A DNA stretch of 64,000 bases from Frankiales bacterium. GTDB taxonomy: Bacteria > Actinomycetota > Actinomycetes > JAFAQI01. Positions 39,423 through 59,009 of this stretch are shown here, piece by piece. Location of the stretch: assembly GCA_025980325.1 (NCBI GenBank), contig JAICXQ010000003.1, positions 18,798 through 82,797 of the forward strand, read 5' to 3'. A program made the position numbers and the translations under genes. Numbering within the stretch: the first letter of the stretch is position 1; each line of letters opens with the position of its first letter. The notes under the pieces are model-generated. The model made no database searches and had not been told where the DNA came from. It worked only from the letters and a program-made list of their open reading frames with translations.

Positions 39423-41003
39423 CTAGCTTCGGGTGTGGTCGGTGTACGACAGGAGCACCGGCTGGTTGTTCGAGCCGCAACTACCGTTCCCGCCGTTCGC
39501 GTAGTACGTCGTGGTGGCGAGACCACGATGGTCGCTGGCCGGCCAGGCAAGGCTGATTCCGTGCGGATCGGCGATGGCCTCTTTCGGCGTGGGGACAGGC
39601 GACCATCTCTTGCTCTTGACGGTGTAGTGCACCGCCTCGGCGTGCGTACACGGAGCCCCAGGATTGCCGTAGTCGCCGCCGGCTTGCAGGATGGCCAGAA
39701 TGTCGTTCGTCGCCGCGGCGAACGTGACCGCCTCGAACGCCGTCCAACTCTGCAGTGCGCCGTTCACCTTGGGTATCGCGGTCAACGGGATCGCCGGCAA
39801 GGCAGCCCAGCTCCGGCCGTTGAGGGAGAGGTACACCTGCGGCTTGCTGTTGCCCTTGACCGATGGACCCCAGGTGACGATTCGTTCCACGCCGGAAGGG
39901 GTGTACTCCGCGTCCACTCCGGCAAGGTGGGTGTCGGCCGGTGCGAACACCTTCGTCCAGGTCGCGCCGCTGTCGGTCGAGCGCCACAGAACGCCGGTCG
40001 CATACTGGCCCAGCTGACCGCTGGCCGCCCCGGTCGTCGATGCGCCGACGGCGAGATTCGTGGTCCACAACGTGTTGGGATGGCGCGGATCGACGATGAA
40101 ATCGGGTTGGGACGGCGGCTGGTTGCCGGCGAGCAGGAAGCCGTCACCGCTCTGCACAGGTTGGGTTGCCAGGACTCCCAGCGCTGCCGAGACCTGGGTC
40201 CACGATTGACCCGCATCATGCGTGACGAACAGTGGAGACGCGTTGGGGAACAGCGCAAAGGCGATGGCCGTGTAGAAGCCCAGGCTCAGCCACCACAGAC
40301 GGGTCTGCTCGCACTGCATGTACACGGTCTTCGGATCGCTCGGCGCAACCTCGAGGGTGGTGTTCTCGCAGGCCGGCACGCCTTCGGGAGCTTCCGGTGC
40401 GTTCGCGCTCGGCAGTGGTTGCGGGGCATGAAATGTCGCACCGCCGTCCGTGCTCACGAGGAACAGCGTCGGTAGCTCGTCGAGCGTTTCCTGATTCGCC
40501 TGGGTCTCGGTCGCGGTGACGTACACCGTCGCGTGGTTGGCCGTCCGGCTCGTCGAAGCGATCGCCAACGACGTGATGCTGTAGAGCTGATCCGAGGACG
40601 CAACGACCTCGGTCGGGGACGACGACGTCCCCGGCTGGCTGTCGAGCGAGAACGCGAGTTGCCACGTGCAACCCCCGTCGAGCGTACGGAACAGCTGCCG
40701 CGGCGTGGCGTAGAACATGTCCTTCGGGCTTGCCGGATCGACGGCCAGCCCGACACCGGGGACAGGGCTCGGCTGCAGCTCGCCCTGCGAGTCGTTCTGC
40801 TCGGTCGTGTTGATCAGGTTGGTACCCGGCGGAGTGCTCGTTGTCGTCCACGGCCCCGGCGAGACATGACAACGGGCCGGCGCAGCCTGCGCACCGCCGA
40901 CCACGCCGGCACCTGCGCAGAGGACGGCGACGGTGGCGAGCATGGAGACGCGAGGCCGGCGAAGGCTGGCCGTCCAGCCCGTGCTCGATGGCTGTGGTGT
41001 CAC
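39423..41003 (-). CDS. Secreted BNR/Asp-box beta-propeller protein (paralog B, tandem duplicate of A)
   Basis: TLDGGCTW, STDGGATF, THDAGQSW, STDSGATW; colinear with 37869-39407. Confidence 0.85.
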   Translation of the reverse strand: MTPQPSSTGWTASLRRPRVSMLATVAVLCAGAGVVGGAQAAPARCHVSPGPWTTTSTPPGTNLINTTEQNDSQGELQPSPVPGVGLAVDPASPKDMFYATPRQLFRTLDGGCTWQLAFSLDSQPGTSSSPTEVVASSDQLYSITSLAIASTSRTANHATVYVTATETQANQETLDELPTLFLVSTDGGATFHAPQPLPSANAPEAPEGVPACENTTLEVAPSDPKTVYMQCEQTRLWWLSLGFYTAIAFALFPNASPLFVTHDAGQSWTQVSAALGVLATQPVQSGDGFLLAGNQPPSQPDFIVDPRHPNTLWTTNLAVGASTTGAASGQLGQYATGVLWRSTDSGATWTKVFAPADTHLAGVDAEYTPSGVERIVTWGPSVKGNSKPQVYLSLNGRSWAALPAIPLTAIPKVNGALQSWTAFEAVTFAAATNDILAILQAGGDYGNPGAPCTHAEAVHYTVKSKRWSPVPTPKEAIADPHGISLAWPASDHRGLATTTYYANGGNGSCGSNNQPVLLSYTDHTRS

Positions 41004-41029
41004 GGGAACCTCCTCACGAACCGACGCTC

Positions 41030-41107: not shown

Positions 41108-41701
41108 TCACCCACTCCATTGGTTGATGCACGATTGCAGCGACTCGCGATAGGCGTCGCTGGTGTACGTCGCCCCCGAAACCGTTTGAATATCAGCGTT
41201 TTCGAGCCGCAGCGCCTCCTTGCGCAGTTGCGGGCCGGCGTAGCCGTTGATCTGGTCGTTGGTCGAGTTTCCGTTCGGCAGCTGGAGGTTCACGACGTCG
41301 GCCCAGTGAGTGCCCTGGATCTTGATGGCGACCTGTACCGGGCCGAAGCTGCCGGCCTGGAACGTTTGGCACGTGTAGGTCTGTGCCGGCCCCGCCGCCG
41401 CCTTCGTCTGGTGCGGATCGGCTTTCGCGGCCGGCCCTCCCCCACCAGTGGTAATCGTGACCGTGCGCGTCACGGTGACGGATCGCGGCGGTGGCGCACC
41501 GGCCGGCCGGGCAGGGCGAGCGGACGCGAGAACGCGAGCGGACGCAGGTCCGTCGGGAGTCGTGACGGATCGCATCGCGACCGTGGTCGAGGGCGACGCG
41601 TGCGTCGGGGCCGCGGGCGGGGTGCGGTAGCGCAGGGTCAACGTGAGTCCGACCGCAGTCAGACCGAGTACGACGCCGGTCTTGATGGCGGGCTTCATCA
41701 T
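41108..41701 (-). CDS. Extracytoplasmic FMN-binding (flavinylated) protein
   Basis: FGPVQV, VSGATYTS flavinylation motif (SGAT at 41168-41179); ATGA overlap. Confidence 0.9.
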   Translation of the reverse strand: MMKPAIKTGVVLGLTAVGLTLTLRYRTPPAAPTHASPSTTVAMRSVTTPDGPASARVLASARPARPAGAPPPRSVTVTRTVTITTGGGGPAAKADPHQTKAAAGPAQTYTCQTFQAGSFGPVQVAIKIQGTHWADVVNLQLPNGNSTNDQINGYAGPQLRKEALRLENADIQTVSGATYTSDAYRESLQSCINQWSG

Positions 41702-43113
41702 GCGAGCGCGAACCCTTCCGTGTGGATCCGGCCGATAGGCAATCCGGCGGCACGCAGTCCGCGGTTGACGCGCTCCGTCATCCCGGGCGGGCCGCAGACA
41801 TACGCGTCGCAGCAGCCCGGTTCGGTGATGAGATCGCGAAGCATCGCCGGGCTGAGCGGGTCGTCGTCGTCACCGGTGCCGCGGTGCCCGGTGACCACCA
41901 GCAGCCGGAACCGGTCGGTGCGTTGCAGGCGCACGAGTTCGTCGCCGAAGTTGACCTGACCGGCGTCACTGACGCGGTAGACCAACGTGACCGCGTCGGT
42001 TCCGCTCGCGATGACGTGCTCCGCGATGGCGAGCAGCGGCGCGACCCCGGAACCGCCGCCGATGAGCAGCACTTCCCGGCCGCGACGCAGCCGCCCGCTC
42101 AGTGCGCCGTACGGCCCTTCCAGCAGAACCCGCGTGCCCGGTTGGCAGTGCGCGAGCCAGTTGGTGTGGTCGCCGACCGGCTTGGCGGTCATCCGCAACC
42201 AGGATCCGTTAGGTGCCGCCGACAGGGAGAACGGATGGGCCTGGGACCAGCCGCCGCGAACGAGGAAGCGCCAGCGGAAGTACTGGCCGCCGACGACGGG
42301 CAGCCGATCCAGTCTGCGGCCGGAGACATAGACGCTTGTCGAACCGTCGGGTTCGCTGGTCACGTCGACGACGCGGAAGCGGTGGCGCGCATATCGCCAG
42401 ATCGGATCGCCGATGCGATAGCGCAGCACAAGGAACGCGACGCTGCCGTGCGCGCTCGCCCACACCACCCGAGCCGGAAGGCTGTGCATGAACAGCGCAC
42501 CGGTCGCGAACTGGTGGGCGAACGCCAGTCCGATGCCGACGTACACGTACAGGTGGACCCACTGCCACGTCTCGTAGCGCAACCGGCGGCGGATCGGGCG
42601 AAGCGACGTCATGACCACGAGCGCGAGCAGCCCGAGCCCGACCGTGCCGGCGAGGACATCCGGATAGGTCAGCACCAGGACGGCGGCCTCGTGCACCACG
42701 GAGGTGTGCACCGCCAGCGCATCGCCGATGGTGATGGTCACGGTATGGATGAGAACCAGCCACAAGATGTAGCCGCCGAGCCACCGATGCGCGGCCGCCA
42801 GCCAATCGGTGCCGATGCGATGCTCCAGCGCCGGGACGCGCGCCATCAGCGTGACCTCGACGAGGATCAGGATCGCCGAGAGCATCCCGGCCGACCGGCC
42901 GAGCTCGACCAGCACGCTTCCGGTGCCGCCGGTCTCCCGCGTCACCGGACTCGACCACCAGTACAACAGCACGGCGAAGCACACGAGACCCGCCGACGCG
43001 ACGACGAGCCATGCCGTGGCGCGCCTGGTGAGCACCAGCCGTCGCATCGGCTCGACCGACGGCAGCGCCCGGTCGAGGACCGGCGCTTCGGTCGGGAGCA
43101 CCGCCGACGACAT
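41698..43113 (-). CDS. Ferric reductase-like TM domain fused to FAD/NAD(P)-binding oxidoreductase
   Basis: Four heme-type His (AAHRW, LIHT, WVHLY, FAHQ), HPFSLS, GPYG, GGSGVAP, YVCGP. Confidence 0.92.
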   Translation of the reverse strand: MSSAVLPTEAPVLDRALPSVEPMRRLVLTRRATAWLVVASAGLVCFAVLLYWWSSPVTRETGGTGSVLVELGRSAGMLSAILILVEVTLMARVPALEHRIGTDWLAAAHRWLGGYILWLVLIHTVTITIGDALAVHTSVVHEAAVLVLTYPDVLAGTVGLGLLALVVMTSLRPIRRRLRYETWQWVHLYVYVGIGLAFAHQFATGALFMHSLPARVVWASAHGSVAFLVLRYRIGDPIWRYARHRFRVVDVTSEPDGSTSVYVSGRRLDRLPVVGGQYFRWRFLVRGGWSQAHPFSLSAAPNGSWLRMTAKPVGDHTNWLAHCQPGTRVLLEGPYGALSGRLRRGREVLLIGGGSGVAPLLAIAEHVIASGTDAVTLVYRVSDAGQVNFGDELVRLQRTDRFRLLVVTGHRGTGDDDDPLSPAMLRDLITEPGCCDAYVCGPPGMTERVNRGLRAAGLPIGRIHTEGFALA

Positions 43114-43132: not shown

Positions 43133-45076
43133 TTACTCGTGGTTCGCGATCAGGTAGACCGGGCCCGCGTACGAAACCATCTGCTCCGTCTCGCCGGATG
43201 CGTCGTCGATGGTCGCGACCACTGCGTTCTCGACCACGCTGCGGCACTGGACGACGGTGTAGACGAGCCCGGCCGCCTGATCCAGTGCGGGCGCGACCGG
43301 ATTGAAGTTCCAGTCGCGTACGTCGTACTTCGCGCCGGCCACGCCGACCGGGCTCGATCCGACCCGTTGCCACGAAGGCGCGCCGGGCGGCAGCCGGTAG
43401 GACCTGATCGACGCGGTCGTGATGCCCGGCGCCGGATCGACGCCGAGGCTCAAGCTCACCCCGTCCGGCAGGAACGACAACCACAGCGGTTGGATCTGGT
43501 TGTAGACGCCGTCCGTCGTCACTTCCTGTGCCTGCGACGACTCCTCGCCGACGGGCAGGTAGACCTCGCGCAAGGTGGTCGGCGACGGCAACGTCGTCCA
43601 GTGCGTTCCGTTGTCGGTCGAGCGCAGCACCACGTAGACGAAGCCGTTCGTCTGCGGGTCGAGGTAGTGCTCGACGACCGCGGCCGCGAAGCCCGAGCCG
43701 TGATCGGCGACCGCGTAGTCGTCGATGTAGGTCATCATCGGATAGCCGACGCCGGTGTCCTCCGTCGGTGCGGCCAGCCCGGTCCAGCTCTTCCCGTAGT
43801 CACCGGACACGTAGAGCGTGCCGTCGGACTCGAACCGCCCGTTCTGGGTGTCGGCGCCGTCCACGCCGTTCGCCCGCGGCGGCGTCGTACCCGGCGGCGT
43901 CTCCACACCGAGCCCGTAGATCCGCCCTGGCCGGCTCGGGTCGACTCGCAACTGGAACAGGTAGTCCTCGGCAGTGCCGACCGCGTACAGCGCCGGCATC
44001 GCCCAGTGCGGACCGGGGCGGATCGGCACGGCGGCGAGTTGCCAGGTCGAGCCGCCGTCACGGCTCACGAACAACCGCATCCGGCCCGAGCTCGCGCTGG
44101 TTCCCGGCGCTGCGTCGGCGGCCGTCTCGAGATACACGACGTGGGGATCGGTCGGTGCGACGGCGAGCAGTTGCGGGTACCCGCTCCCCGCCGGCAGGGC
44201 CTGCATGGCGCTCGTCACTTGCATGCCACCCGCCGACACGGGTTGGCCGGCCAGCGGAACTGAGGCCGACCACGTCGTGCCGCCGTCGGCGCTCGCCGCC
44301 AGCACCACATGCCCGCCGTACGTTCCGTACGCCGTCGACCACCACGGCGGCGCGATGGTCGCGTAGACCTGGTCGCCGGCTGCGGCAATCGCGGTGACGG
44401 CATATCCGGGTGGCACCGGGATCGCACCGTCGGTGACCGACGCGCCCGCGGGATGCGCGGTCGGATCGAGCGACAGCACCGGAGCCCACGAACACCCGCC
44501 GTCCGACGTGCGCAGCACCTTCGTGCCGTCCGACGCGAGCAGCCGTCCGGGCCGCCCACCGGGAACGACGAACGACGTGGACGCAACAGCGGCGCCGCCA
44601 CCCACACCTGCCGGCGGCACGCCCACCACCTGCTGACCGCTGTTGACCGCCGCGCTTGCGGTGTCCCACACCGAAGACGACGCATCCGGCATCCCGACGA
44701 CGGCAAGCCGGCCGGTGACCCGCACGCCGGGGCATGGGCTGCGGGTGAGCACGTTTCCGGTCGCGACCGGCAGCTGCGCCGGTCCCTGTGCGCCGTACGG
44801 CGTCGTTGGCGGCGCCTCGGTCCGGCGCACCAGCGTCACCACCCGGACCTGCGCACCGGGCGGGGCCGGCGCGCCGTCCGCGGCGCCGGAAGGCTGCCGC
44901 CTCGGCAGGGCCGCGCCGGCGTGACCGGCGGCCAGCGACACCGGTCGTTGGGGCAGCAACAGCGTCAGAGCGATCAGCGCCGCGGTCGTCGCACTCGCGA
45001 CGACGCTCGGCCGCTTGGCGATCACCCCGGCGTGCAGCCGCCAACCGCTCGCCCGTCCGGTCGACAAGGCGAGCAT
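43133..45076 (-). CDS. Secreted BNR/Asp-box beta-propeller protein (paralog C)
   Basis: TSDGGCSW, SADGGTTW, SRDGGSTW, SGDYGKSW, STDNGTHW; TGATG overlap. Confidence 0.8.
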   Translation of the reverse strand: MLALSTGRASGWRLHAGVIAKRPSVVASATTAALIALTLLLPQRPVSLAAGHAGAALPRRQPSGAADGAPAPPGAQVRVVTLVRRTEAPPTTPYGAQGPAQLPVATGNVLTRSPCPGVRVTGRLAVVGMPDASSSVWDTASAAVNSGQQVVGVPPAGVGGGAAVASTSFVVPGGRPGRLLASDGTKVLRTSDGGCSWAPVLSLDPTAHPAGASVTDGAIPVPPGYAVTAIAAAGDQVYATIAPPWWSTAYGTYGGHVVLAASADGGTTWSASVPLAGQPVSAGGMQVTSAMQALPAGSGYPQLLAVAPTDPHVVYLETAADAAPGTSASSGRMRLFVSRDGGSTWQLAAVPIRPGPHWAMPALYAVGTAEDYLFQLRVDPSRPGRIYGLGVETPPGTTPPRANGVDGADTQNGRFESDGTLYVSGDYGKSWTGLAAPTEDTGVGYPMMTYIDDYAVADHGSGFAAAVVEHYLDPQTNGFVYVVLRSTDNGTHWTTLPSPTTLREVYLPVGEESSQAQEVTTDGVYNQIQPLWLSFLPDGVSLSLGVDPAPGITTASIRSYRLPPGAPSWQRVGSSPVGVAGAKYDVRDWNFNPVAPALDQAAGLVYTVVQCRSVVENAVVATIDDASGETEQMVSYAGPVYLIANHE

Positions 45077-46566
45077 CAACAGCCGCCGGTATAGAGAAGG
45101 CCGTACGAAGTCACCGTCGTCGCCGTCTGGAACGTCGGGGTCGTCTGCTGGCGCGACACGTACGCCGTCACGAACAGCCGGCCCGAGCTATCGGTCAACC
45201 GGAAGTCGGAATAGGACACGCTGGCATTCGTCTGGACCGGGAAGCCGGGCGTCGCGACCGCCGACCACCTGCCGTGGTGCAACCGCAGGAACCGATAGGC
45301 CGTCGCAGCGGCCGGCGTCGTGGTCGAGGAGTTGGCGGCGCCGAAGTAGGCGCCGTTCTGCAACTCGGCCAGAGCCAGCACGTCCTGGCTGCCGGCGCAG
45401 ACCCAACGCGGGCGCGCGGCGCTGACGTAACCCCACGCGTTCAGCGTCGGCGGGACCGGCAGCACCTTCCACGTGCGGCCGCCGTTCGTCGAGGCGTAGA
45501 TCTTGGGTGGCGGCAACGTGCCGTTCACGCCGCCGTCCGGCCAGTTCATCAGCAGCCGCGCGGCCGCGCCGTGAGGGTGGACGGCGTCCAGCCATTGCAC
45601 GCCCATGCCCTGCGCACGCCGGGTGCCGAGCGTGTGCGGGGCGCGCGGCACCGCGTACCACGTGCGGCCGCCGTTGGTCGACTGGGAGACGACGCCGTCC
45701 TGGCTCCCCCAGTCCGACGATCCGTACGCCCACAGGGTGCGCGGGTTCGACGGATCCACGACGAGCCGCCCGTTGGCAACGGTGTTCAACGACTCGCCGA
45801 GGACGTACCAGCTCGCGCCGCCGTTCGTCGTCCCGAGCGCCTCGAACGTCTGGTACGCCGCCGACAGTGCCGGGGTCCCGGCCTCGTCGTCGACGATCGA
45901 GGCAACCTCGCCCACCGCAGGGGCCGGCGTGGTCGCGGTGGCGTTCAGCGACAGGTAGACGGTGCGCGGATCACTCGGCGCGACGTAGAGCGAGGGCGTG
46001 GCCGACGGTGTGAACACCGGGACCGGCTGCCCGCCGGCCGCCGACGGCGCTTCGACGACGGACAGCTTCCAGCTCGTCCCGCCGTTGGTGCTGACCGCCC
46101 AGAACAGCGGCGCGCCGGCTTCGGTCGCCAACTGGTCCATGGCGGTCCCCTCGCCGCGGATGAGGGCGTACGCGACGGTCGGGCCGGCCGCCACGACCGA
46201 GGTGATGGCGGCGTCCGGCCACGCCCGCAGCAACGTGTCCGGAACGCCGACCGCGGACGGGTCGCGGGTCGGGTCGAGACTGAAGACGGTCGACCAGCTG
46301 CACCCGAGGTTGGTCGAGCGCATGATCGTGTCACCGTTGGTGGCGAACAGCCGCGAACCCGATCCGCCGGGAACCATGTCGGCCACCCCGGCCTGGGTGT
46401 GCGACGCGGCCGACGCCGGGAACGCCGGCGGGTCGACGACCGTCCAGGGTCCGTGTCGATGCCCGCAACTGCTGGCGGCGCCGACCGGTGTGGTTCCGGC
46501 ACCGGTACCGAGCCCGCCGAGTGTTGCGGCCAGCAGGACGGACAAGGCGCGGGTACGGCGCATCAT
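45076..46566 (-). CDS. Secreted BNR/Asp-box beta-propeller protein (paralog D)
   Basis: STNLGCSW, STNGGTSW, TTNGGASW, STNGGRTW x2; ATGA overlap. Confidence 0.85.
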   Translation of the reverse strand: MMRRTRALSVLLAATLGGLGTGAGTTPVGAASSCGHRHGPWTVVDPPAFPASAASHTQAGVADMVPGGSGSRLFATNGDTIMRSTNLGCSWSTVFSLDPTRDPSAVGVPDTLLRAWPDAAITSVVAAGPTVAYALIRGEGTAMDQLATEAGAPLFWAVSTNGGTSWKLSVVEAPSAAGGQPVPVFTPSATPSLYVAPSDPRTVYLSLNATATTPAPAVGEVASIVDDEAGTPALSAAYQTFEALGTTNGGASWYVLGESLNTVANGRLVVDPSNPRTLWAYGSSDWGSQDGVVSQSTNGGRTWYAVPRAPHTLGTRRAQGMGVQWLDAVHPHGAAARLLMNWPDGGVNGTLPPPKIYASTNGGRTWKVLPVPPTLNAWGYVSAARPRWVCAGSQDVLALAELQNGAYFGAANSSTTTPAAATAYRFLRLHHGRWSAVATPGFPVQTNASVSYSDFRLTDSSGRLFVTAYVSRQQTTPTFQTATTVTSYGLLYTGGC

Positions 46567-49274
46567 GGCCTCCCTCTCGTTCGCGGCGGTGGCGATCGGC
46601 GGGCAAGCACCGGCGCAACCCTGCGCGCGAGACCGAGGCTCGCCGCGCAGCTGAGCATCGCGAGGGTGCCGAGCACCGGCGCGTTCACCGGCACCGCCGG
46701 ACGCCGGCGGACGCGGACCATGGCATTGCCGTCGGCCGCGTCGAGTTGGTTCTGGGCCCGGGCCAGCGCGAGCTGGAGCTGTTGCTGGCGCTGGGGCACG
46801 ACGACGCCCTGCGCGATGGCCTGCGACTGCGGCTGTGCCTGGCCTTGCACGGCCGGGTTGGGGGCGGGCGCCGGACCCGGCGCACCAGCCGTGAGCGGGT
46901 TCGCGATCGGGTTCGCCGGCACCGCCGGTGGTGGCGGCGGCGGGGCGAGCAGCGCGGCGGGGCGTGGCGGGTGAATGACCGCGGCATGGGTCCCGACGAC
47001 GGTGAGCGCCGCGCGGGTGGTCGCCGGGTAGAGCGCGGAGTCACCCGGGAAGCTGGCCTGTACCGGAACGACGGTCTTGCCGTTCGCGGTCAGCGGCGCG
47101 AGGTAGGGCAGGCAGAGCCGGCCGAGCAGATCGGTCTGGCCGTTGCCCACGACGAGCCCGGCGGCGGTGACGGTGATCGGCCGGTTGGCGGCGGGCGCTC
47201 CGGTCGTCGCGTTGACGAGTCGGGCGCACAGCGCGCTGGTGGTGCCTTGATGAACGGTCCCGGCCGTGCTCAGGAGGAGCCGGGCCGGCATCGGGCAGTA
47301 CCCCACCGGTACGCCGTAACCGGTGACCGTTCCGGGCAACGAGTCCCGGATCCACACGGCTGTCTGCGGGAAGAAGGTCTGGGTGTCGCAGGCCATCGCG
47401 TCGTTCTCGGCGGTGCTTTCCGAGTACCGGCGATGGCTGTAGGTCCCGACGAGGTTGCAGTGCCGGTCGATGCGGAACAGCGTGGTGTCGCTCTCGCCCT
47501 GGATGTAGCCGCCACCGTCGCCGGCGGCGACGTACGTCGACACCCGGTCGCCGTCGGGCACGATCACCGTGCAGACCCGCTGACTTGCGGCCGGACCGCC
47601 GGTCATGGTGTCGCGGTAGAGGAGGCTTCCGTCCTCCGGCACCCACGAGAGTCCGTCGATGAACGAGTCGTAACTCGGCACGCCCGTCGGCGCCGCGCCG
47701 AGCGACACGAGCCGTTTGCGGCCGAGGCCGTAGGCGACCAACTCCCCCGGCCGAGTGGTGATGATGAGCCTGTTTCGCTTGAGGTCGAAGCTCAACGACA
47801 AGATGTTCAAGTCGGTATGGATGACGCCGAGGTACCGGCCCGTGTCCGCTTGGATCACACCGACGTCGCCTGGGATCTGCTGGTCGTAGTAGAGCGCGGT
47901 CCCGCTGAACGCCACCGCGCCGCTGGCGGTGTTCGCATCCGGCAACAGCCAGGTCGCGAGCTCGGACAGCGGCCGGCCGGGCGGCCCGACCGGATTGGCG
48001 GGCAGTCCGGGCAGCGAGGGCAGCAACGACGTGGAGGCCGAGCCGTTGTTCGCGGTGGCCTGGTAGCCGTCGAGGACCAGCCGGTAGATTCCGGCGCTGC
48101 CGCCGCAGTCGACGAGGAACGTCGCCGGCACCAGCGCGTCGCGACGCAAACCCCGGGGCGCGCATCCGGACGGCAGACCCGGCAGTCCGGCGAACTGAGT
48201 CGTCGCCGCAGTGGACAGGGCGGTCCCGGTCGGCGTCTGCACGACGATCGCGCTCGCGGCGTCCGGGGCGGTGCGGATCGCGCTCGCCGAGGTGGAGCTG
48301 ATCGTCGTCCAGCTCGAACCGTCGTCGACACTGCTCATCACGCCCTGATTCGTGGCGAGCAGGATCACCACGCCGCCCCCGGGCGCAGGGGTGATGGTGA
48401 TGTCGGACACGGTCGCGTTCGCGCAGCACGCCTGGCTGAACGACTGGCCTCCGTCGACCGACACCCACGCACCGCCGCCGGCGGCGCCAGGGGTGATGTC
48501 GTTGACCCAGATCTCGTCGGCGCTCGTCGGGTTGACCGCGACGACGGTGGGAGTGAGGTCGGCCGCCCCGGGCAACGGATGGAACGTCGCGCCGCCGTCG
48601 TCGCTCTTGACGAGCATCCCCGGCGCGCCCGCCGCCTGGGCGGCCGGCAACGCGTGTTCCGGATGCGCGACGACGTAGAGATAAGGAGTGGGAGCCCCCT
48701 TGACGTAGTGGGTGGCGGTGGCGGCGGCGAGCGCGCCGGTCTCGACGCTGACCGGAAGCGGCTCGGCAACGGTCTCGTCGACCGGCGACTGGTCGACCGA
48801 TGCTTCGAGGCTGAGCATCGCGGGCGCGAACGTCATCCCGCCGTTGTGGCTGACCAGCAGCCGCGGCAAGGGCGACCCGGGCACCGAGGTGTCCGGCCCG
48901 ACGGCGAGCACGGGTGCGGGGCCGCCGCCGCGGTTCGACTGCACCGTCAGGCCTTCGGTGAAGATCCCCGAAACCGGCGGCTGGCCGTCGAGGTGACGCC
49001 ACACCCGGCCCCCGTCGTCACTGCGCCACAGCCCGTGGTCGGCGTCGGCGCCGACGAGGGTGCACGGGTCGTCGTCCAGCTGACCGGCCGAGACCAGGCG
49101 TACGCCGGGCGGCTGCGGCAGCGGGCTCCATCGATTCATCGGGACACCGGACGGGTAGCGGCACGTACCCGCCGCGGTCGCGGTCCTGCCGACGATCGTG
49201 GCCGCCGCGCACACGAGCAACAGCACGAGGACGCGGCTCAGCAGTCGCGTGGTGAGAGGTGCGCGCTGGGTCAT
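46563..49274 (-). CDS. Large surface protein: Asp-box propeller, second propeller, Ig-like domain, Pro/Gln-rich linker, TM, Arg tail
   Basis: SDDGGRVW, SHNGGMTF, SDDGGATF, SVDGGQSF, SVDDGSSW; ASFPGD Ig-like strand; QAQPQSQ..QRQQQLQLAL; TM then RR. Confidence 0.85.
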   Translation of the reverse strand: MTQRAPLTTRLLSRVLVLLLVCAAATIVGRTATAAGTCRYPSGVPMNRWSPLPQPPGVRLVSAGQLDDDPCTLVGADADHGLWRSDDGGRVWRHLDGQPPVSGIFTEGLTVQSNRGGGPAPVLAVGPDTSVPGSPLPRLLVSHNGGMTFAPAMLSLEASVDQSPVDETVAEPLPVSVETGALAAATATHYVKGAPTPYLYVVAHPEHALPAAQAAGAPGMLVKSDDGGATFHPLPGAADLTPTVVAVNPTSADEIWVNDITPGAAGGGAWVSVDGGQSFSQACCANATVSDITITPAPGGGVVILLATNQGVMSSVDDGSSWTTISSTSASAIRTAPDAASAIVVQTPTGTALSTAATTQFAGLPGLPSGCAPRGLRRDALVPATFLVDCGGSAGIYRLVLDGYQATANNGSASTSLLPSLPGLPANPVGPPGRPLSELATWLLPDANTASGAVAFSGTALYYDQQIPGDVGVIQADTGRYLGVIHTDLNILSLSFDLKRNRLIITTRPGELVAYGLGRKRLVSLGAAPTGVPSYDSFIDGLSWVPEDGSLLYRDTMTGGPAASQRVCTVIVPDGDRVSTYVAAGDGGGYIQGESDTTLFRIDRHCNLVGTYSHRRYSESTAENDAMACDTQTFFPQTAVWIRDSLPGTVTGYGVPVGYCPMPARLLLSTAGTVHQGTTSALCARLVNATTGAPAANRPITVTAAGLVVGNGQTDLLGRLCLPYLAPLTANGKTVVPVQASFPGDSALYPATTRAALTVVGTHAAVIHPPRPAALLAPPPPPPAVPANPIANPLTAGAPGPAPAPNPAVQGQAQPQSQAIAQGVVVPQRQQQLQLALARAQNQLDAADGNAMVRVRRRPAVPVNAPVLGTLAMLSCAASLGLARRVAPVLARRSPPPRTRGRP

Positions 49275-49280
49275 CAGGCA

Positions 49281-50828
49281 CTAGCCCGCGTAGGCCCGGA
49301 CGAGATCGAACTCCCCGGTGCCGCCGCACTGCGCCACGAGCCCCGCGCTCCGTTCGACCGGGCACGGGTCCGTGCTGACCTGCGTCGGCTGGTCGGCGAT
49401 CGAGAGGTACACATGGCGGCCGGCGGGATCGACGGCGGTCGCGACCGGCCACACCGAACCGAGCGAGCCGACACTGGTCGGGTCCCGGACGTCGTAGCGC
49501 GCCACCCACGCTTGCTTGCCGGCCGAGGTGAAGGCGACGACCACCGGATAACCGGCGTCGGCCGCGATCGGGCCGATGAGCCCGGCGACATAGAGCATGG
49601 TGCCGCGGGCGTTCACCGCGCCGGTTGTCGCCAATGCGGAATAGCTCCCGGTGGCGGAATAGCCGGCGGGGGCGTAGGTGGACAGCCACGTGCTGTGGCC
49701 GGTGCGAGTGTCGAGCGCCGTGGCGGCGAGCCCGCCGCTGCCCGACCCGACCAGGAACAACCGGTCGCCGTGCGGGCTGACCGTCCAGGCCACCGGCGTG
49801 ACCGCGCCGTTGCGAGCCACCCAGCGGGTCTGTCCCCGGCTCGTCGAATAGGCGACGACGAGCGGCTGCGTCACCGGGCTGGTCGAGGTGCCGAACGTCG
49901 CGGTGCCGGCCACGAACACCTGGTCGTTGCGCGGGCTGATGGCGATGCCGGCGGGCTGATGATCCGAGCCCAGATGTGTGATCGCCCGCCAGTTCTGCCG
50001 GCCCGTACGAGCGTCGTAGCGAATCACGGCCTGGTCGTAGACGTGCACACCGGTCGTCTCGGCATGCTCGCTCGTTCCGGCGACGTATACGGCGCGGCCG
50101 TCGGGCGACAGCGACAGGCCGACGGGCGAGTTCTGGCCGCCCGCGAGGCCGCCGTACCGGGAGAGCCACAGCTGGCGTCCGTTGCGCAACGAGTACGCGA
50201 TCGTGATCCATTCGATGTACGGCCGCTGGAAGCCGGCGCTGTACTGGCTGTTGCCGGTGACGATGACCTCCTGGCGCTGCGCGTCGATGGTCATGGCCAC
50301 CGGCACGTTGGTCTCGCCACCCAGCCGGTAGATGGCGGACCAGACCGCCCGGCCGTTCGACGTCGAGTACGCCGTCGTCAACCAATAGACCAGCACCTTG
50401 GCGTTGAGGTTCGGCTGGTAGTTGACCGTGCCGGTCACGAGGACGAGCGACTGGTCCGGCGTCAGTGCGAGCGACGTCGCTGCGGTCGTCAGCGAGGTCG
50501 GTGCGTGAGCCAACCAGATGGTGCCGCCGTTCGAGGTGCTCAGTGCCGCGACGGTCACATGCGGCTGGCTCTGGCCGACATAGCTCGTGGTCGCGACATA
50601 GATCCGGTCGCCACGGCGATCGACGACCGTGCCGGCCGGAACGTCGCTGACCGGCGAGCCGTCCGGACTGCGGTCGTTGAACGAGCGCGACCACTGTTCG
50701 CACCGGTCGTTGAACCCCGACACTTGGTTCACGCAGACGGCCAGCGGCGCGCCGTAGCCCGTCGGCGCGAACGGCAGCAGGATCCCGGCGACAACCAACG
50801 CCGCCGGTAACCGGGAATGCGTGAACAT
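49281..50828 (-). CDS. Secreted PQQ-like beta-propeller protein
   Basis: Repeats AYST.NG..VW, AYSL.NG.QLW, YDARTG.QNW, SPDG.AVYVAG; Cys pairs at both termini. Confidence 0.85.
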   Translation of the reverse strand: MFTHSRLPAALVVAGILLPFAPTGYGAPLAVCVNQVSGFNDRCEQWSRSFNDRSPDGSPVSDVPAGTVVDRRGDRIYVATTSYVGQSQPHVTVAALSTSNGGTIWLAHAPTSLTTAATSLALTPDQSLVLVTGTVNYQPNLNAKVLVYWLTTAYSTSNGRAVWSAIYRLGGETNVPVAMTIDAQRQEVIVTGNSQYSAGFQRPYIEWITIAYSLRNGRQLWLSRYGGLAGGQNSPVGLSLSPDGRAVYVAGTSEHAETTGVHVYDQAVIRYDARTGRQNWRAITHLGSDHQPAGIAISPRNDQVFVAGTATFGTSTSPVTQPLVVAYSTSRGQTRWVARNGAVTPVAWTVSPHGDRLFLVGSGSGGLAATALDTRTGHSTWLSTYAPAGYSATGSYSALATTGAVNARGTMLYVAGLIGPIAADAGYPVVVAFTSAGKQAWVARYDVRDPTSVGSLGSVWPVATAVDPAGRHVYLSIADQPTQVSTDPCPVERSAGLVAQCGGTGEFDLVRAYAG

Positions 50829-50847: not shown

Positions 50848-53121
50848 CTACACGGCAGCCAGGCTGGCGTGGTTGCGCTGAGCGTTCAGCGCGACCTCGA
50901 AGTCGTTCATGGTGATGGTGATCCCGCTCTTCGGCGTACGACCGTTGCGGGTGACTCGGTTGAGCGCCTTCCGCCCGGCACTGTCGCGCAGCCGCTTGAG
51001 ATCGGCGCCCGACATCCCTTCGGTGCCGGGGATGAGTGAACGCAGGTTGACCGTCTTCGCGAGGTTCACCTCCCGGCACAGCAGTTGCAGCAACTGCAAC
51101 CGCGCCGGCGCGTCCGGCAGACCTACCTCGACGGGCTCGAGCCGACGGCCGACGACGGCTTCGTCGATGGTGTCGATCCGGTTGGTGGCGCCGACGAGCA
51201 GCACACCGTCACCGCCCTTGAGCCCGTCCAGTTCGCGAAGGAACTGGGAGAGCACGCGCTCCTCCCATTTCGCGTTCGAGTCGCCCGACCGCCGGCGCAG
51301 GAGTGCGTCGATCTCGTCGATGAAGATGATCGAGGGCCGGTTGGCTCGTGCTTGGGTGAACAATTTGGCGACCCGCTGCTCGGACTCTCCGGCCCACTTG
51401 CTGAGCAGGTCGGCCGCACTCATCTCGTAGAAGCTGGCCTGGATCTGACTGGCCATGGCTTTCGCGATCGTCGTCTTGCCCGTACCCGGAGGGCCGAAGA
51501 GCAAGACGCCGGCCGGCGGCTGGATCCCGACCTGGCGGGCGAGTTCGGGACGGGTGAAGATCGTGAGCACTTCCATGACCCGTTCCCGGGTCTCCTCGGC
51601 GAGTACGACGTCGGGCCAGCCGACGGTGTGCTCGAGGCTGAGCCGGTGCTGGCCGCCCCGATCCGCGATGGCCTGCGCGAGCACCTCCTGCGTGATCGGT
51701 GCTCCGTCCCGCAGCGCCGCCTGGGCAGCGAGCGAGACGACCGTCTCCAGCGCCGCGGCGTTGTAGCCGTGCGTGACGCGGGACAGCGCCGCGAGATCCA
51801 GGGTGGCCCAGTCGACGGCGTCGCCGCGGCGCCGCAGGTGCACGTCGAGGACGGTGACCCGGTCGTCCGGATCCGGCAGCGGGACGTGAATCTTGGCGTC
51901 GAACCGCCCTTCGCGCAGTGCCGGATCGAGCCGGTCCAGATCGTTGGTGCCGGCGGCGATGATCAGGCCCGGGACGTTGCGGTACTCCTCGAGGCAGACC
52001 ATCAACTGGGTGACGACCTCTCGGTGATCGGCCGACGGCTGGTCACCGCGATCGGAGGCGATGGTGTCGATCTCGTCGAGGTAGAGGACGCACGGAGCGT
52101 TTCGCTTGCCGAGCTCGAAGAGCTGGCGAAGGTTGGTCGCGGCTTCGTGGATGTACGCGCTCGCGATGCTCGCCGGCGAGAACCGCAGGTAGCGCAACCC
52201 GTACTCGCCGGCGAGGGCCCGGCTCAGCAGGTTCTTGCCGGTGCCGGGTGGGCCGTAGAACAGGATGCCGTTGTGCACGACCTGGTAGCGCGCGGCTTCG
52301 TCCGGACGTTCGAGGATGGCGCCGACCGATTCGCGCAACGCGCGCTTGACCTTCTCCAGCCCGCCGACATCGGCGAAGGTCTCGCACTCGGCGGGCGGCA
52401 GTACGCGTAGTCGGTTGTCCCGTCCCACGGTTGAGTTGTTGTCCAGTCCGGGCGCGACGCGGATCTGGCTGCCCAACAGGTCGGCCGCGAGCCGGTATCC
52501 GGCGGTCTGCCGTTGACGCAGCCGGGCGGCCGCCTCTGCCGCGGCGAGCGGCCCGTCGTCGGGCTTGACGTGGTCGAGCTGGACCTTGGCCTGACGGCAC
52601 TCGGCGACGTTCTCCTCGAGCCGGGCCAACCCCTCGGTTCCGACCGCACACGTGGCCATCGCACGGTTCAACGCGACGATGAAGCGGCGGCCGGAGATGG
52701 TCAGCTCGTGCTCGGCCGCCTCGACCGCCGTACCCGCCGCGCCGAAGTCGAGCCGGTCGACCGCGTCCCGAGCCTCGGCGAGCCGGGCCAACGCGACCTG
52801 TGCGTGCTTGAGTTCGCCCTCGGCTTTGCCCAGCAGATCCGGGATTCTGGCCGCGACGAGCCGCTCGAAACCCTCGGCCATGTCCTCGACCGACTGGCGG
52901 AGCACGGCGAGCACTTGGACCGCCTCGTCGCGCGCCGCGTGTTCCTCGGCCGACCAGGTTGCCTCCAGCGCGGCTTTCGCCTGGCGTCGGCGTAACCGCG
53001 GAATCGACGCGAGCTCCGCGTCCTTCTCCACGCGGTGCAGGACGTCCCGCTGAGTCAGTCGGGCGGCGTGCCGACGGTAGTGCAGGACGTCGGGATTGCG
53101 CGCAGCGGACGAGCGTGGCAC
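50848..53121 (-). CDS. Double-AAA (CDC48/p97-like) ATPase with N-terminal helical/coiled-coil region
   Basis: D1 GPPGTGKN, LYLDEID, LDPALREGRFD; D2 GPPGTGKT, SKWAGESE, IFIDEID, GATNR. Confidence 0.92.
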   Translation of the reverse strand: MPRSSAARNPDVLHYRRHAARLTQRDVLHRVEKDAELASIPRLRRRQAKAALEATWSAEEHAARDEAVQVLAVLRQSVEDMAEGFERLVAARIPDLLGKAEGELKHAQVALARLAEARDAVDRLDFGAAGTAVEAAEHELTISGRRFIVALNRAMATCAVGTEGLARLEENVAECRQAKVQLDHVKPDDGPLAAAEAAARLRQRQTAGYRLAADLLGSQIRVAPGLDNNSTVGRDNRLRVLPPAECETFADVGGLEKVKRALRESVGAILERPDEAARYQVVHNGILFYGPPGTGKNLLSRALAGEYGLRYLRFSPASIASAYIHEAATNLRQLFELGKRNAPCVLYLDEIDTIASDRGDQPSADHREVVTQLMVCLEEYRNVPGLIIAAGTNDLDRLDPALREGRFDAKIHVPLPDPDDRVTVLDVHLRRRGDAVDWATLDLAALSRVTHGYNAAALETVVSLAAQAALRDGAPITQEVLAQAIADRGGQHRLSLEHTVGWPDVVLAEETRERVMEVLTIFTRPELARQVGIQPPAGVLLFGPPGTGKTTIAKAMASQIQASFYEMSAADLLSKWAGESEQRVAKLFTQARANRPSIIFIDEIDALLRRRSGDSNAKWEERVLSQFLRELDGLKGGDGVLLVGATNRIDTIDEAVVGRRLEPVEVGLPDAPARLQLLQLLCREVNLAKTVNLRSLIPGTEGMSGADLKRLRDSAGRKALNRVTRNGRTPKSGITITMNDFEVALNAQRNHASLAAV

Positions 53122-55869: not shown

Positions 55870-57429
55870 TCAGCCGGTCGCGACCCGCTCGCGCTGCGAC
55901 GACTTCCGCTGCCTGGCCGCAACCGAACTCGTGCCGTTCGGTGGCGCGGCGGGCTCCGGAACTGCCCGGCTCATTCGCTCGTGATAGTCGGCTTCCTCGG
56001 CATCGCCGTTGCGGTCGTACCACTGCCACGCGCGCTGGTGCAGTTGGATCTGGCGCGGCAGCGTCAGCCGTTGATAGACGTAGTCCCGCACGCTCGTATG
56101 GATGAACGCCACGTCGCCGCTTCGTCCGCGCACGGCGATGTGGCATCGCGCCAAGTGGCGGCAGACGTCGGTGACCTCGCCCATCGTGCGCTGCGCGACG
56201 TAGGCCAACTGGGCGTCGCTGAAGCGGTGGCGGAAGACGCTGGCCGCCTCGAGGATGTCCCGGTCGTAGGAGTCCATCAACTCGGTCAGGCAATCCAAGA
56301 GAAATGCCTGGACCTCGTCCTGCTCGGTGAAGACCGCCATGCCGCCGGCGATCTCGTCGGTGGTCGCGGTGGTCAGCCACGAGCCGGCCAGCTGGGTGAG
56401 CTGCGGGATGCCCCTGGTCCATGCGTGCACCGAGGTGGCGAGATCGGGCGTGATGCTCGGGACCAGTTGCCGCAGCAGCACCTGCGTCTCGCGAGCGGTG
56501 AAGCCGGGGACGAGCATCGGTACGGCGCAGGACGGTCGCGGGTCCTGATGACGGCCCACGGTGATGAGTTGCAACGTCGGCAGGCGCCGTACCGCGTCGT
56601 CGAGGAACGTGCCGATGGCCGGGTCCAGCTCGCTGAGGTGATAGTCGTCGAACACGAGCAAGGTGCGCACGTTCGACAGTTCCTGAACGGCCACCCGGCT
56701 GAGCAGCAGGACGTCGACGTTGGGCAGCGAAGCGGCGGTCAGCTCGGCCAAGCGCGGATGGCGCTGGGCGCGAAGGTGTTGAGCCAGCTCGAACAGAAGC
56801 GCACGCAACGAGTCGTTGACGCCGGTGCGCAGCCGGTACCAGAGCACCGGCGCGACCGAGGATGCCTCGACCGCGAGCTCGGCGATCAGGCTGGTCTTGC
56901 CGATGCCGGCCGGGCCGTGGACGTGGACTCCCCGGTGCTTGCCGAGCGCCGCCTTCAGCGCCTCCGCGACACTTGGCCGGGGCAGGAACCCACTGATCGC
57001 AGGGACGGGCTCGAAGTAGTAGTTGCTGCTCGCTCCGGTGAGGCCCTGCAACTCGGCGACGAGATCGGCGCGCAGCAACGCGATCGCGCGGGATCGCTCC
57101 CGGGTGAGCTGGCGCACCGACAGTCCGAGCTTGTCTGCTGCGCTCTCCAGCTTCGCCCCGTCGACGAAGCAGGTTCGCAGCACCAGGTAGGGAAGCTGTT
57201 CCTTCCAACCGGCGCCGTCAGCGGGCTCCAGTCGCTCGATCGCCTCGTGCACCAACTCGGACGCCACGCGACCGACGGCGAGCGGCGATGCAGACTCGGG
57301 CAACCGGTCGCAGACTTTGAGCAACTGCGTCATGGCCGGGTCGGCCAATCGATGCGGCTCGCGAAGGTCGCCGAGCCACGCACGAACAGCGGATTCCGAG
57401 ACGATGTCGCCCACTGCGATGTCGGTCAC
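55870..57429 (-). CDS. HTH + STAND (NB-ARC/MalT-like) ATPase transcriptional regulator
   Basis: Sigma-r4-like HTH (AADKLGLSVRQLTRERSRAI), GPAGIGKT, LLVFDDYH, RGIP, winged helix, short TPR-like end. Confidence 0.8.
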   Translation of the reverse strand: MTDIAVGDIVSESAVRAWLGDLREPHRLADPAMTQLLKVCDRLPESASPLAVGRVASELVHEAIERLEPADGAGWKEQLPYLVLRTCFVDGAKLESAADKLGLSVRQLTRERSRAIALLRADLVAELQGLTGASSNYYFEPVPAISGFLPRPSVAEALKAALGKHRGVHVHGPAGIGKTSLIAELAVEASSVAPVLWYRLRTGVNDSLRALLFELAQHLRAQRHPRLAELTAASLPNVDVLLLSRVAVQELSNVRTLLVFDDYHLSELDPAIGTFLDDAVRRLPTLQLITVGRHQDPRPSCAVPMLVPGFTARETQVLLRQLVPSITPDLATSVHAWTRGIPQLTQLAGSWLTTATTDEIAGGMAVFTEQDEVQAFLLDCLTELMDSYDRDILEAASVFRHRFSDAQLAYVAQRTMGEVTDVCRHLARCHIAVRGRSGDVAFIHTSVRDYVYQRLTLPRQIQLHQRAWQWYDRNGDAEEADYHERMSRAVPEPAAPPNGTSSVAARQRKSSQRERVATG

Positions 57430-57646
57430 GTCACTCCCATCTCACCGCCGAGGGTTTGGACAGGAGATTGGACACGACGGGCACGAGTTCCTGTGTCTGC
57501 AAGCCGCGCATCGAAAATCGTCGACACCTGAAAACTAGCCCGCTCGGTCTTGTGAAACCCCTACGGCCGCGTTCCGAATCCCTTGGTTCGTGCGCGTGGT
57601 CCTCCTCCGGCTGGACGTGCGGGCTGTGCGCCACATGGTTGCGGGG

Positions 57647-57776: not shown

Positions 57777-58517
57777 TCAGCCGGCTCGGCGAGGAAACCC
57801 TGGGCTGTACCAGACGTCGCCGTGACTGGCGACGACCATACTTTCCAGATCTCGTTGACGCGCCAGCCATTCCGTCGCCGACGGCCCCATCGCATAGGCC
57901 GCCGTCGCGATCGCGTCCGCGACGGTGAGGGTGTCCGCGACGATGGTGACGCTCGCCAACGTCATCGGCCGCTGACCCGTATGCGGGTCGACGATGTGCT
58001 CGCCGCGTTCGTAGGCACCGGAAGTCGCAACCCCCTGATCGCGGACGTCGGCGACCTCGATGAGGCGCATCCGGTCGGTCGGGTTGACGATTCCGACGCC
58101 CCACGGTTGGCCGGGCTGCGGCTCCCCCATCGTGAGCACATCGCCGCCGCCGTTGACCATCATGTTGCGAGCGCCGGCCGAACGCAGCAGCGACGCGGCA
58201 CGGTCGATCGCCCAACCCTTGACCACACCTGACGGATCGAGCCGGCCGGTGGCCTGCGGATCGAAGTAACCCTCGGTGCGGTGGCGCAACTTCTCGCAGA
58301 GGTCGAGGATCTGGCGCACCTCTCGATGGCAATGGTCGACCGTGATCTCGCAGCGATCCAGTCGATTGATCTCGCTGTCCGGCTGGTACGTGCTGAACGT
58401 CTCGTCGACCCAGTGCAGCCATTGCACCGCCTGTTCGAGCGCAGCGTCGGCGACGTAGGGCTCACGGATGTCGAAGGTGAACGCGGTGCCCATGACGAAC
58501 TCGACATGTCGCATCAC
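57777..58517 (-). CDS. apbE: FAD:protein FMN transferase
   Basis: VMGT, FSTY.PDSEI.RL, VKGWAID, NGGGD, ATSG.YERG.HI.DP.TG, ADA.ATA. Confidence 0.93.
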   Translation of the reverse strand: MMRHVEFVMGTAFTFDIREPYVADAALEQAVQWLHWVDETFSTYQPDSEINRLDRCEITVDHCHREVRQILDLCEKLRHRTEGYFDPQATGRLDPSGVVKGWAIDRAASLLRSAGARNMMVNGGGDVLTMGEPQPGQPWGVGIVNPTDRMRLIEVADVRDQGVATSGAYERGEHIVDPHTGQRPMTLASVTIVADTLTVADAIATAAYAMGPSATEWLARQRDLESMVVASHGDVWYSPGFPRRAG

Positions 58518-58535
58518 CGGCAGCGTAAGCGGTGC

Positions 58536-58880: not shown

Positions 58881-59009
58881 GTGACCACCCTAGGCCGCTG
58901 GTTCCGCGAGTGGCGTCGGTTTGGTTTATCAGACGGCGATCGGGCTCGGGGCAGAACAGCTGGCGGTGCGGGTGCGGCTTCGAAAGCGTGACGTTGAGTC
59001 TACCGGCGA

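Follow-up and report, generated by a model that had tools for sequence, protein, structure and literature searches.

The C-terminal tail and the gene that carries it

We analysed a 64,000-nucleotide stretch of DNA from a Frankiales bacterium (GenBank assembly GCA_025980325.1, contig JAICXQ010000003.1, positions 18,798 to 82,797 of the forward strand), which is called the window at its full length. On its minus strand, within an operon that also encodes an FtsH paralogue, a Cdc48-like protein and secreted beta-propellers, lies an open reading frame (ORF) for a 903-aa protein, P0002. A first-pass annotation, made from the sequence alone, had proposed that 46563..46975 encodes a new C-terminal sorting signal (Pro-rich and Q-rich segments, QLALA, AM, a transmembrane (TM) helix and an Arg tail) that is read by the co-encoded FtsH/AAA pair. 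These elements indeed form the C-terminus of P0002, the interval covering residues ~767-903 and the stop codon. The tail is a conserved, family-specific C-terminal module; its core, a linear motif, lies in a disordered stalk next to the membrane. The proteins that carry the tail, found in some uncultured actinobacteria and sensor-like in their ectodomains, co-occur with, and usually adjoin, a distinct clade of apparently active FtsH paralogues. The gene and the parts of its product are as follows.

46563..49274, minus strand, including the stop codon: tail-protein gene (P0002, 903 aa); ORF and translation, GC content at third codon positions (GC3) 0.89, 11 full-length orthologues
49170..49274, minus strand: signal-peptide region, residues 1-35 (helix 8-27); Kyte-Doolittle (KD) hydropathy of 19-mer 11-29 is 2.40, helix in the AlphaFold2 (AF2) model
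48060..49157, minus strand: first beta-propeller (BNR/Sortilin-like), residues ~40-405; sub-threshold BNR, Sortilin-Vps10 and F510_1955 matches
47310..47987, minus strand: second beta-propeller-like domain, residues ~430-655; AF2 model
46995..47297, minus strand: immunoglobulin (Ig)-like beta-sandwich, residues ~660-760; AF2 strands 664-760 with a predicted local distance difference test (pLDDT) score of ~90, near-invariant C660 and C721
46830..46979, minus strand: Pro-rich disordered stalk, residues 766-815; sequence, coil with pLDDT <50, (NP)n in relatives
46755..46829, minus strand: Q-rich signature motif QGVVVPQRQQQLQLALA, residues 816-840, with core Q834-L835-A836-x-A838; QLA invariant in 26 tails
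46719..46754, minus strand: polar/acidic spacer and N850-A851-M852 (consensus E-L-A-M-S); A 77%, M 80%, S 73% of 105 sequences
46683..46718, minus strand: basic pre-TM stretch VRVRRRPAVPVN, residues 853-864; sequence, poor conservation (0.99 bits)
46626..46682, minus strand: C-terminal TM helix of marginal hydrophobicity, residues 865-883; best 19-mer KD 1.68, AF2 helix
46566..46625, minus strand: Arg-rich, predicted cytoplasmic stub, residues 884-903; R884 kept in 91% of sequences

The GC content of the window is ~65-73%, and codon-position GC (GC3 0.89) favours the minus-strand frame of the tail gene over an antisense ORF at 44788-46974. A plus-strand reading of 46563..46975 was rejected, as its translation is Arg-rich nonsense. 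The antisense frame itself (plus strand, 728 aa) overlaps the tail gene and its neighbour; its richness in Arg and its aberrant codon-position GC mark it as a high-GC artefact that poses a risk of mis-annotation.

The AF2 model of the tail protein, built with 105 sequences, had a mean pLDDT of 80.2. Residues ~40-405 were all-beta with high pLDDT, residues 766-864 were coil (pLDDT <50) and the end after the TM helix was also disordered. When the tail was modelled alone, a low-confidence helix (pLDDT ~60) appeared over residues 828-848 in addition to the TM helix. A scan of six tails for amphipathic helices gave brief marks in three of them, none over QLAxA or AMS.

Foldseek matched the model to tandem-propeller sensors. 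The top match was 4a2l, the periplasmic sensor of a Bacteroides hybrid two-component system (BT4663; E 2.8e-17, TMq 0.24), followed by PorZ (5m11), SorCS2 (6fg9) and GH74 enzymes. The likeness to BT4663, PorZ and SorCS2 lies in the tandem propellers (E 2.8e-17 to 1e-13), at low template-modelling scores (0.17-0.25) and ~10% identity. With BT4663-type sensor ectodomains, the protein shares a plan of two propellers, an Ig-like domain and a TM segment; however, the Bacteroides hybrid sensors continue into cytoplasmic kinase or regulator domains, whereas the tail protein has only ~20 cytoplasmic residues after its TM helix and would need a partner to pass on any signal.

Of 156 full-length family members, 144 have a hydrophobic 12-mer (KD >=1.8), which is a crude hydrophobicity proxy for a signal peptide, among their first 56 residues. 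Among 155 members, the best 19-mer of the C-terminal TM helix had a median KD of 1.61 with a median of five small or polar residues (S/T/C/G/N/Q), and the stub had a median length of 14 aa (range 9-44) with a median of six R/K. A type-I topology, with the ectodomain outside and the stub inside, is predicted from these features.

Conservation and distribution of the tail

The tail is a conserved module of ~85 aa at the C-terminus. It was kept in 11 of 11 orthologues (40-49% identity), which come from metagenome-assembled genomes named 'Frankiaceae bacterium'. A hidden Markov model (HMM) of the orthologue tails matched four ORFs among the 23,212 six-frame ORFs of the window's genome (68% complete), and a profile of four paralogous tails (A2) added two more, giving six tail genes. 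With A2, tails were found in 15 of the 36 genomes of the window's family; most other genera of this family carry a single copy, and genomes of a second family carry 3-13.

In an alignment of 26 tails (A3), Q-L-A was invariant and the next-but-one A was kept in >=90%. The consensus begins with (Asn-Pro)n followed by N-x-N-A-G-[FM]-A-x-Q-[EQ]3-Q-x-Q-[LV]-A-x-[AV], and continues through a mostly acidic segment of ~10-20 residues to [E]-[LY]-A-M-S; a further 8-15 residues separate this element from a TM helix rich in Ala, Gly and Leu, after which comes R-R-R…R. P0002 has L in the variable position of the core (Q834-L835-A836-L-A838). A search of 1.84 billion cluster representatives with the A3 profile returned 232 clusters at E<=1e-3, of which 43 reached E<=1e-10, and all of the 150 matches listed ended within 20 residues of the C-terminus (median 1).

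We then quantified conservation in 105 full-length sequences, most of which are 15-22% identical to P0002. The Q motif was the best-conserved segment of the whole protein (2.44 bits per column compared with 1.44 overall), and the AMS element reached 2.24 bits per column. The motif columns held Q in 90%, L in 74%, A in 96% and A in 71% of sequences; A836 (96%) and R884 (91%) were among only 17 near-invariant columns. These values bear on the explanation that the motif is a by-product of low-complexity, high-GC (Pro/Gln/Ala-rich) coding and shared ancestry, with no function of its own. The HMMER bias of 19.4 for the self match, the high GC content of the genome (~68-72%) and the lack of a confident structure are what such a by-product would show. 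However, Q834, A836, A851, M852 and R884 are kept in 77-96% of 105 sequences that are mostly only ~15-22% identical, the matches are always C-terminal, and 232 clusters in 1.84e9 representatives are not a low-complexity flood; we consider this explanation close to negligible.

The P0002 tail had no Pfam or NCBIfam family match at E<=1, and the tail motif in 10 further members had none at E<=0.01. Weak TonB-model matches reached the tail region in two of these 10 members and were most likely made by the Pro-rich stalk. In the ESM Atlas, the best score for residues 800-903 was 0.78, which is under any useful level. The analysis thus defines a searchable domain of ~85 aa (232 clusters) with no Pfam or NCBIfam match in the proteins scanned.

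No LPXTG, LAxTG or PEP motif is readable in the tail, and the single sortase match of the window's genome lies on another contig (C109), unlinked to the tail gene; on both points the first-pass annotation was right. Class E sortases use LAxTG. A sortase route was rejected on the grounds that the tail contains neither pentapeptide and the sole sortase match is unlinked.

One protein family with a heterogeneous ectodomain

The first-pass annotation had suggested looking for the same tail on unrelated proteins. As judged by sequence comparison, the tail is not a portable signal, and its carriers form one divergent family of ~900 aa. When the tails were removed, 104 of 104 N-terminal parts joined one BLAST single-linkage component, and the tail was present in 54 of 56 homologues of the paralogue type P0019 (proteins of 506-1610 aa searched). 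The two tail-less homologues were a split gene of the window's genome and a protein with a junk-like C-terminus, probably caused by a frameshift. The alignments of all 17 mid-length matches fell in the C-terminal part of the ~900-aa proteins; 16 of the matches were colinear fragments, and P0104 is a natural shorter form without the first propeller.

The split gene lies beside an FtsH gene on contig C72 (C72:4825-7590), as ORFs of 696 and 223 aa that abut at 5496/5500. In orthologues from the same genus the frame is unbroken (933 and 1031 aa), and the split is likely a frameshift or an assembly error.

The family plan consists of one or more propellers or a von Willebrand factor A (vWA) domain, followed by the Ig-like domain and the tail. 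The middle domain varies: in the window type it is a second propeller (AF2), and in most members it is vWA-like with a DxTGS motif. The HMM of the window type reached only 28 of 105 N-terminal parts, and several pairs of paralogues had no direct BLAST match; the Ig-like domain, the stalk and the tail are the constant parts. The vWA-like domain, in which DxTGS resembles a metal ion-dependent adhesion site and for which some members have precomputed integrin-beta VWA matches, stands between the propeller and the Ig-like domain in the proteins on C72, C33, C21 and C103. It gives these proteins an integrin-like layout of a propeller, a beta-I-like vWA domain, a single TM helix and a short cytoplasmic tail.

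The first-pass annotation had also likened the tail to LPXTG and PEP-CTERM signals. The tripartite appearance (motif, TM helix, Arg cluster) was confirmed and proved to be conserved and multi-copy, whereas the placement of the motif differs: it lies 14-41 residues upstream of the TM helix, in the disordered stalk. We therefore weighed a cleaved sorting signal in the LPXTG/PEP-CTERM sense, in which another membrane enzyme would cut at or near QLAxA or between AM and S and transfer or release the ectodomain, and FtsH would merely clear the leftover TM stub. As far as they are described in the parts of Haft's paper drawn on here (10.1101/2023.06.07.544157), attributes 1-6 of such signals are found in the tail, namely C-terminal position, multiple copies, conserved residues, a TM helix, an Arg cluster and an N-terminal signal. 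The six copies in this genome and up to 13 in another, the >=3 near-invariant residues, the extreme C-terminal position with TM helix and Arg cluster, and the N-terminal hydrophobic segment all agree with cleavage. Moreover, paralogues with and without a linked FtsH have almost identical motifs, as one common processing enzyme would predict.

Attributes 7 and 8 of the same source, as given there, are lacking. The carriers are one BLAST component instead of many pairs similar in the signal alone; and homologues elsewhere without the signal or with a different one were not found, the tail being in 54 of 56 P0019 homologues with two broken genes as the only exceptions. Known signals directly precede the TM helix, whereas the motif is 14-41 residues away from it; the NCBIfam sorting-signal models gave no match; the only sortase of the genome, which is unlinked, would find no LAxTG; and no candidate enzyme adjoins the genes. 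Taken together, a cleaved signal of this kind is quite improbable. Small genes of ~212 aa downstream of the FtsH/tail cassette on C72 were considered as the processing enzyme and rejected, being secreted Cys-rich paralogues and not membrane enzymes. They form two tandem copies just downstream of the cassette (C72:3418-4755) and belong to a multi-copy family (matches on C108, C114, C109 and C129) with no Pfam match.

In comparison with LPXTG/sortase, PEP-CTERM/exosortase, GlyGly-CTERM/rhombosortase and MYXO-CTERM/myxosortase, as these systems are presented in the source sections used, the tail is similar in its C-terminal signature residues, TM helix and Arg cluster, and further in the N-terminal signal peptide, the several copies per genome and the membrane protease encoded beside the target. 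Unlike those signals, it has a bipartite signature 14-41 residues before the TM helix and is confined to one protein family; it has no linked sortase-like, exosortase-like, rhomboid or CPBP enzyme; and the co-distributed enzyme is the ATP-dependent FtsH, whose active site is cytoplasmic and for which cleavage is only hypothetical.

Tail genes and a distinct clade of FtsH paralogues

In the window, the tail gene follows four genes on the same strand.

55870..57441, minus strand: AAA_16/STAND-like NTPase at the operon head; Pfam AAA_16 3e-07, slightly under the cut-off; the same gene precedes the paralogous operon on C34
53122..55677, minus strand: FtsH paralogue with TM1, ~140-aa outer domain, TM2, AAA and M41; Pfam AAA 1.5e-42, Peptidase_M41 5.3e-47
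50848..53121, minus strand: Cdc48-like protein with two AAA domains and no TM; Pfam AAA 2.4e-72 over two stretches
49281..50828, minus strand: secreted NHL-like propeller without C-terminal anchor; weak NHL/SGL matches, N-terminal hydrophobic segment

The true start of the FtsH paralogue is probably near 55233. Its Walker A (GPPGCGKT), Walker B (VVFIDELD) and zinc-site (HESGH) motifs are intact, as are Walker A, Walker B and HExxH in five further copies checked. The topology TM1-outer domain-TM2 was found in 20 of 20 aligned paralogues. By topology and intact motifs, the tail-linked FtsH paralogues look active.

In the window's genome, an FtsH paralogue precedes four of the six tail genes at a distance of one to three genes. 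The order is STAND, FtsH, Cdc48-like, propeller and tail gene in the window (C53); STAND, FtsH, Cdc48-like and tail gene on C34; FtsH, Cdc48-like, propeller and tail gene on C103; and FtsH followed by the split tail gene on C72. Across the window's family, an M41 domain occurred within 8 kb on the same contig for 18 of 28 tail matches. In the second family (five genomes), this was true for 11 of 30, and each genome had one such pair or more. The two genes usually lie ~2.6-2.7 kb apart, which makes them direct neighbours, and the smallest conserved cassette consists of these two genes alone, for FtsH and the tail protein.

We next compared the distribution of the two partners. The N-terminal module (TM1, outer domain, TM2 and linker) of 20 tail-linked FtsH paralogues was aligned (A5), and 401 genomes of the class were searched with the tail profile and A5, taking E<1e-10 as a strong tail match and >=200 bits as a full-length A5 match. 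Strong tail matches were found in 23 of the 401 genomes. Full-length A5 matches were found in 22 of these 23, and the 23rd carries the module as two adjacent pieces. None of the remaining 378 genomes, which include six flagged as unpublished (G049, G076, G390, G041, G287 and G064), had an A5 match of >=200 bits; in ordinary FtsH, the match was limited to the TM2-linker part at 60-95 bits. Within families, too, tail and FtsH module marked out identical sets of genomes, namely 8 of 20 for the window's family and 13 of 17 for the second one. Of the 35 FtsH N-terminal modules, 28 lay on the same contig as a tail gene and no more than 10 kb from it; the gene order varied, and some of the pairs were separated by other genes.

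The first-pass annotation had predicted that the tail would follow the FtsH/AAA pair. The prediction holds for the FtsH clade; it does not hold for the Cdc48-like AAA protein, which is present in three of the four FtsH-linked operons here and stands beside FtsH in one of five other genomes checked. The Cdc48-like protein is accessory only, and the correlation is with FtsH alone. The objection that the tail might be unique to P0002, or uncorrelated with FtsH, fails because an HMM search of the kind suggested at the outset returned six copies in the genome and 232 clusters, and because the tail is co-distributed with the FtsH paralogue.

In section 5 of Haft's paper (10.1101/2023.06.07.544157), 'dedicated' sorting systems are expected to have the enzyme and its target encoded by consecutive or nearby genes, a precedent for the coupling favoured below, and this adjacency can, by the account given there, replace the criteria of many unrelated carriers. 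Bearing on that alternative are the tail genes near 28 of 35 FtsH modules, with FtsH as no more than a candidate processing enzyme.

The distribution also bears on the explanation that the tail is a plain conserved stalk and anchor without a dedicated partner. FtsH would then be nearby for quality control of large secreted propellers, or for shared regulation within a larger surface or defence system, and conservation of the motif would reflect self-association or cell-envelope contact. This would account for the many tail genes that lie apart from any FtsH, for the anchor-less propeller genes in the same operons, for the other functions encoded there (STAND-like NTPase, Cdc48-like AAA and ferric-reductase-like protein) and for a divergent pair in genome G056 that lost the motif and kept the gene pair. 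It accounts less well for the phyletic match of tail and FtsH module across 401 genomes (one module split) and for a minimal cassette of FtsH and tail protein only at ~2.6-2.7 kb spacing. Moreover, a disordered juxtamembrane motif that outscores folded domains is typical of a specific binding or processing site. We consider a plain anchor a real, though minority, possibility.

Two diverged gene pairs were also observed. On contig C13 of G056 (L056:2243-6790), FtsH is followed by an 858-aa protein that keeps the plan of Pro-rich, Q-rich and acidic segments, TM helix and RRR. At C10:30402-37452, the gene after an FtsH paralogue encodes an NHL/teneurin-like protein of 1677 aa, in which the Q-rich/TM/RRRRR end has diverged and QLAxA and AMS are absent.

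M41 matches were unusually numerous: eight in the window's genome (2.7 Mb, 68% complete) and 12 in G328. They fell into score classes of ~245 bits (housekeeping), ~195-212, ~130-176 (tail-linked) and ~90-110 bits.

A model for the tail and the FtsH paralogue

We favour the reading that the tail is a family-specific anchor functionally coupled to the dedicated FtsH paralogue, and give it about an even chance of being correct. In this model, the protein would be exported through Sec by its N-terminal signal peptide to become a type-I membrane protein, the ectodomain of which (two propellers and the Ig-like domain) would be held on a long disordered Pro/Asn-rich stalk. QLAxA, ~10-20 mostly acidic residues and [L]AM[S] would sit just outside the membrane, followed by the marginal TM helix and an Arg-rich cytoplasmic stub of ~14 residues. 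The juxtamembrane motif would most likely be the recognition site for the clade-specific outer domain of the FtsH paralogue, and the stub could be a cytosolic handle for the FtsH AAA ring. The propeller protein may thus be a cognate client or adaptor that is kept at, turned over by, or released through the FtsH paralogue. The topology, physical contact with FtsH, and any pulling or cleavage are inferred.

According to section 8 of PMC13039401, FtsH needs an unstructured cytosolic tail of ~10-20 aa as a pulling handle; the stub, with a median of 14 aa and disordered in the model, is within the range stated there. The tail protein can further be compared with the FtsH clients and adaptors in E. 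coli FtsH-HflKC and B. subtilis FtsH-rhomboid YqgP, as covered by the portions of PMC13039401 and PMC7231995 consulted. Like those clients, it is single-pass with a short unstructured cytosolic end and a marginal, polar-rich TM helix, and the ATPase and zinc-protease motifs of FtsH are intact. Unlike the clients described in these portions, it is paired gene-for-gene, as one client family, with an extra FtsH paralogue that has a clade-specific outer domain. A narrow full-text literature search, with subscription journals outside its reach, returned no description of the tail or of an FtsH paralogue paired with a propeller client.

Several observations weigh against functional coupling. The tail genes on C33 and C21 stand alone (two of six in the window's genome), and 10 of 28 tail genes in the window's family and 19 of 30 in the second family have no nearby FtsH. 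The phyletic match is partly circular because A5 was built from paralogues chosen as tail neighbours; in addition, related genomes are not independent, and many assemblies are fragmented. The G056 pair, from a third family, keeps the architecture without QLAxA and AMS. Since the tail occurs only on this family, the link to FtsH may concern the ectodomain or co-regulation; and the near-identity of the motif among the paralogues of one genome fits a shared partner better than paralogue-specific docking. The proteolytic site of FtsH is cytoplasmic, whereas the prediction places the conserved motif on the outer side of the membrane. Finally, the motif was modelled only as coil or as a low-confidence helix (pLDDT ~60).

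A more specific form of the model is that the system is a device for surface-protein processing or signalling run by an AAA+ protease, in which the specialised FtsH, with a Cdc48-like unfoldase in some operons, reads QLAxA…AMS and extracts the TM helix. The FtsH outer domain would bind the juxtamembrane motif, and FtsH would grip the Arg stub and pull out the marginal TM helix. The ectodomain might then be shed or activated, or ligand binding outside might be relayed to, for example, the STAND-like NTPase. Such a device would be a bacterial counterpart of retrotranslocation of the type in endoplasmic-reticulum-associated degradation, or of regulated ectodomain shedding. We consider this specific form unlikely.

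The significance of the favoured coupling depends on its nature. Signals made of a motif, a TM helix and an Arg cluster have repeatedly led to surface-anchoring enzymes (sortases, exosortases, rhombosortase and myxosortases); the module of similar look described here tracks instead a dedicated FtsH paralogue, an ATP-dependent protease. Physical coupling would make this the first FtsH paralogue with a private, genetically paired and recognisably tagged client or adaptor, and would offer a clue to why certain actinobacteria maintain 5-12 FtsH copies. With a purely regulatory coupling, the tail would be an ordinary family-specific membrane anchor of uncultured soil actinobacteria. A simple two-gene cassette is also defined that is testable in a heterologous host.

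Propellers combined with FtsH-type AAA proteins also occur in the ternary systems of Kaur, Burroughs, Iyer and Aravind (eLife 2020, PMC7159879), which, in the passages concerned, centre on MoxR, vWA and a double FtsH-type AAA protein with an inactive first domain and are described with no signal peptides and no membrane anchors. Common to both are a propeller (and vWA in most of the paralogues here) with an FtsH-type AAA+ protein, STAND NTPases nearby and occurrence in actinobacteria. Unlike in those systems as described, FtsH here has an M41 peptidase and two TM helices, and the propellers are exported. Among 10 operon proteins scanned for MoxR, none reached the cut-off; the nearest was bpMoxR at 23 bits against 27, on the Cdc48-like protein only. 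Identity with the FtsH-ternary systems, as set out in that part of the paper, was rejected, given the lack of MoxR, the exported proteins, the true M41 FtsH and the absence of vWA from the window's tail protein.

Other genes of the operon

Downstream of the tail gene, the operon continues with further propeller genes and a flavocytochrome.

45076..46566, minus strand: secreted BNR propeller, no anchor and no TM; BNR 5.3e-06; start codon overlapping the tail-gene stop codon (ATGA)
43133..45079, minus strand: secreted BNR/Sortilin-like propeller, no C-terminal anchor; Pfam and hydrophobicity scans
41698..43113, minus strand: ferric-reductase/NOX-like membrane flavocytochrome; Ferric_reduct 2.6e-16, NAD_binding_1 4.3e-09, four TM segments
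39423-41027, minus strand: another BNR protein in the same gene string

P0002 had been singled out as the only propeller of the operon with a C-terminal anchor, and hence as a hypothetical scaffold for the rest. On the anchor, the scans agree: the five others scanned have an N-terminal hydrophobic segment only and no C-terminal TM helix. The NHL-like propeller (49281..50828) has a second, weak hydrophobic segment at residues 414-432 (KD 1.55), which is internal. Just upstream of the STAND-like gene, genes of the ApbE family and with a STAS domain were observed (57777-58889, minus strand). The flavocytochrome (41698-43113) also has a FAD_binding_8 domain; its position among the secreted propeller genes is a hint of an extracellular redox function for the operon.

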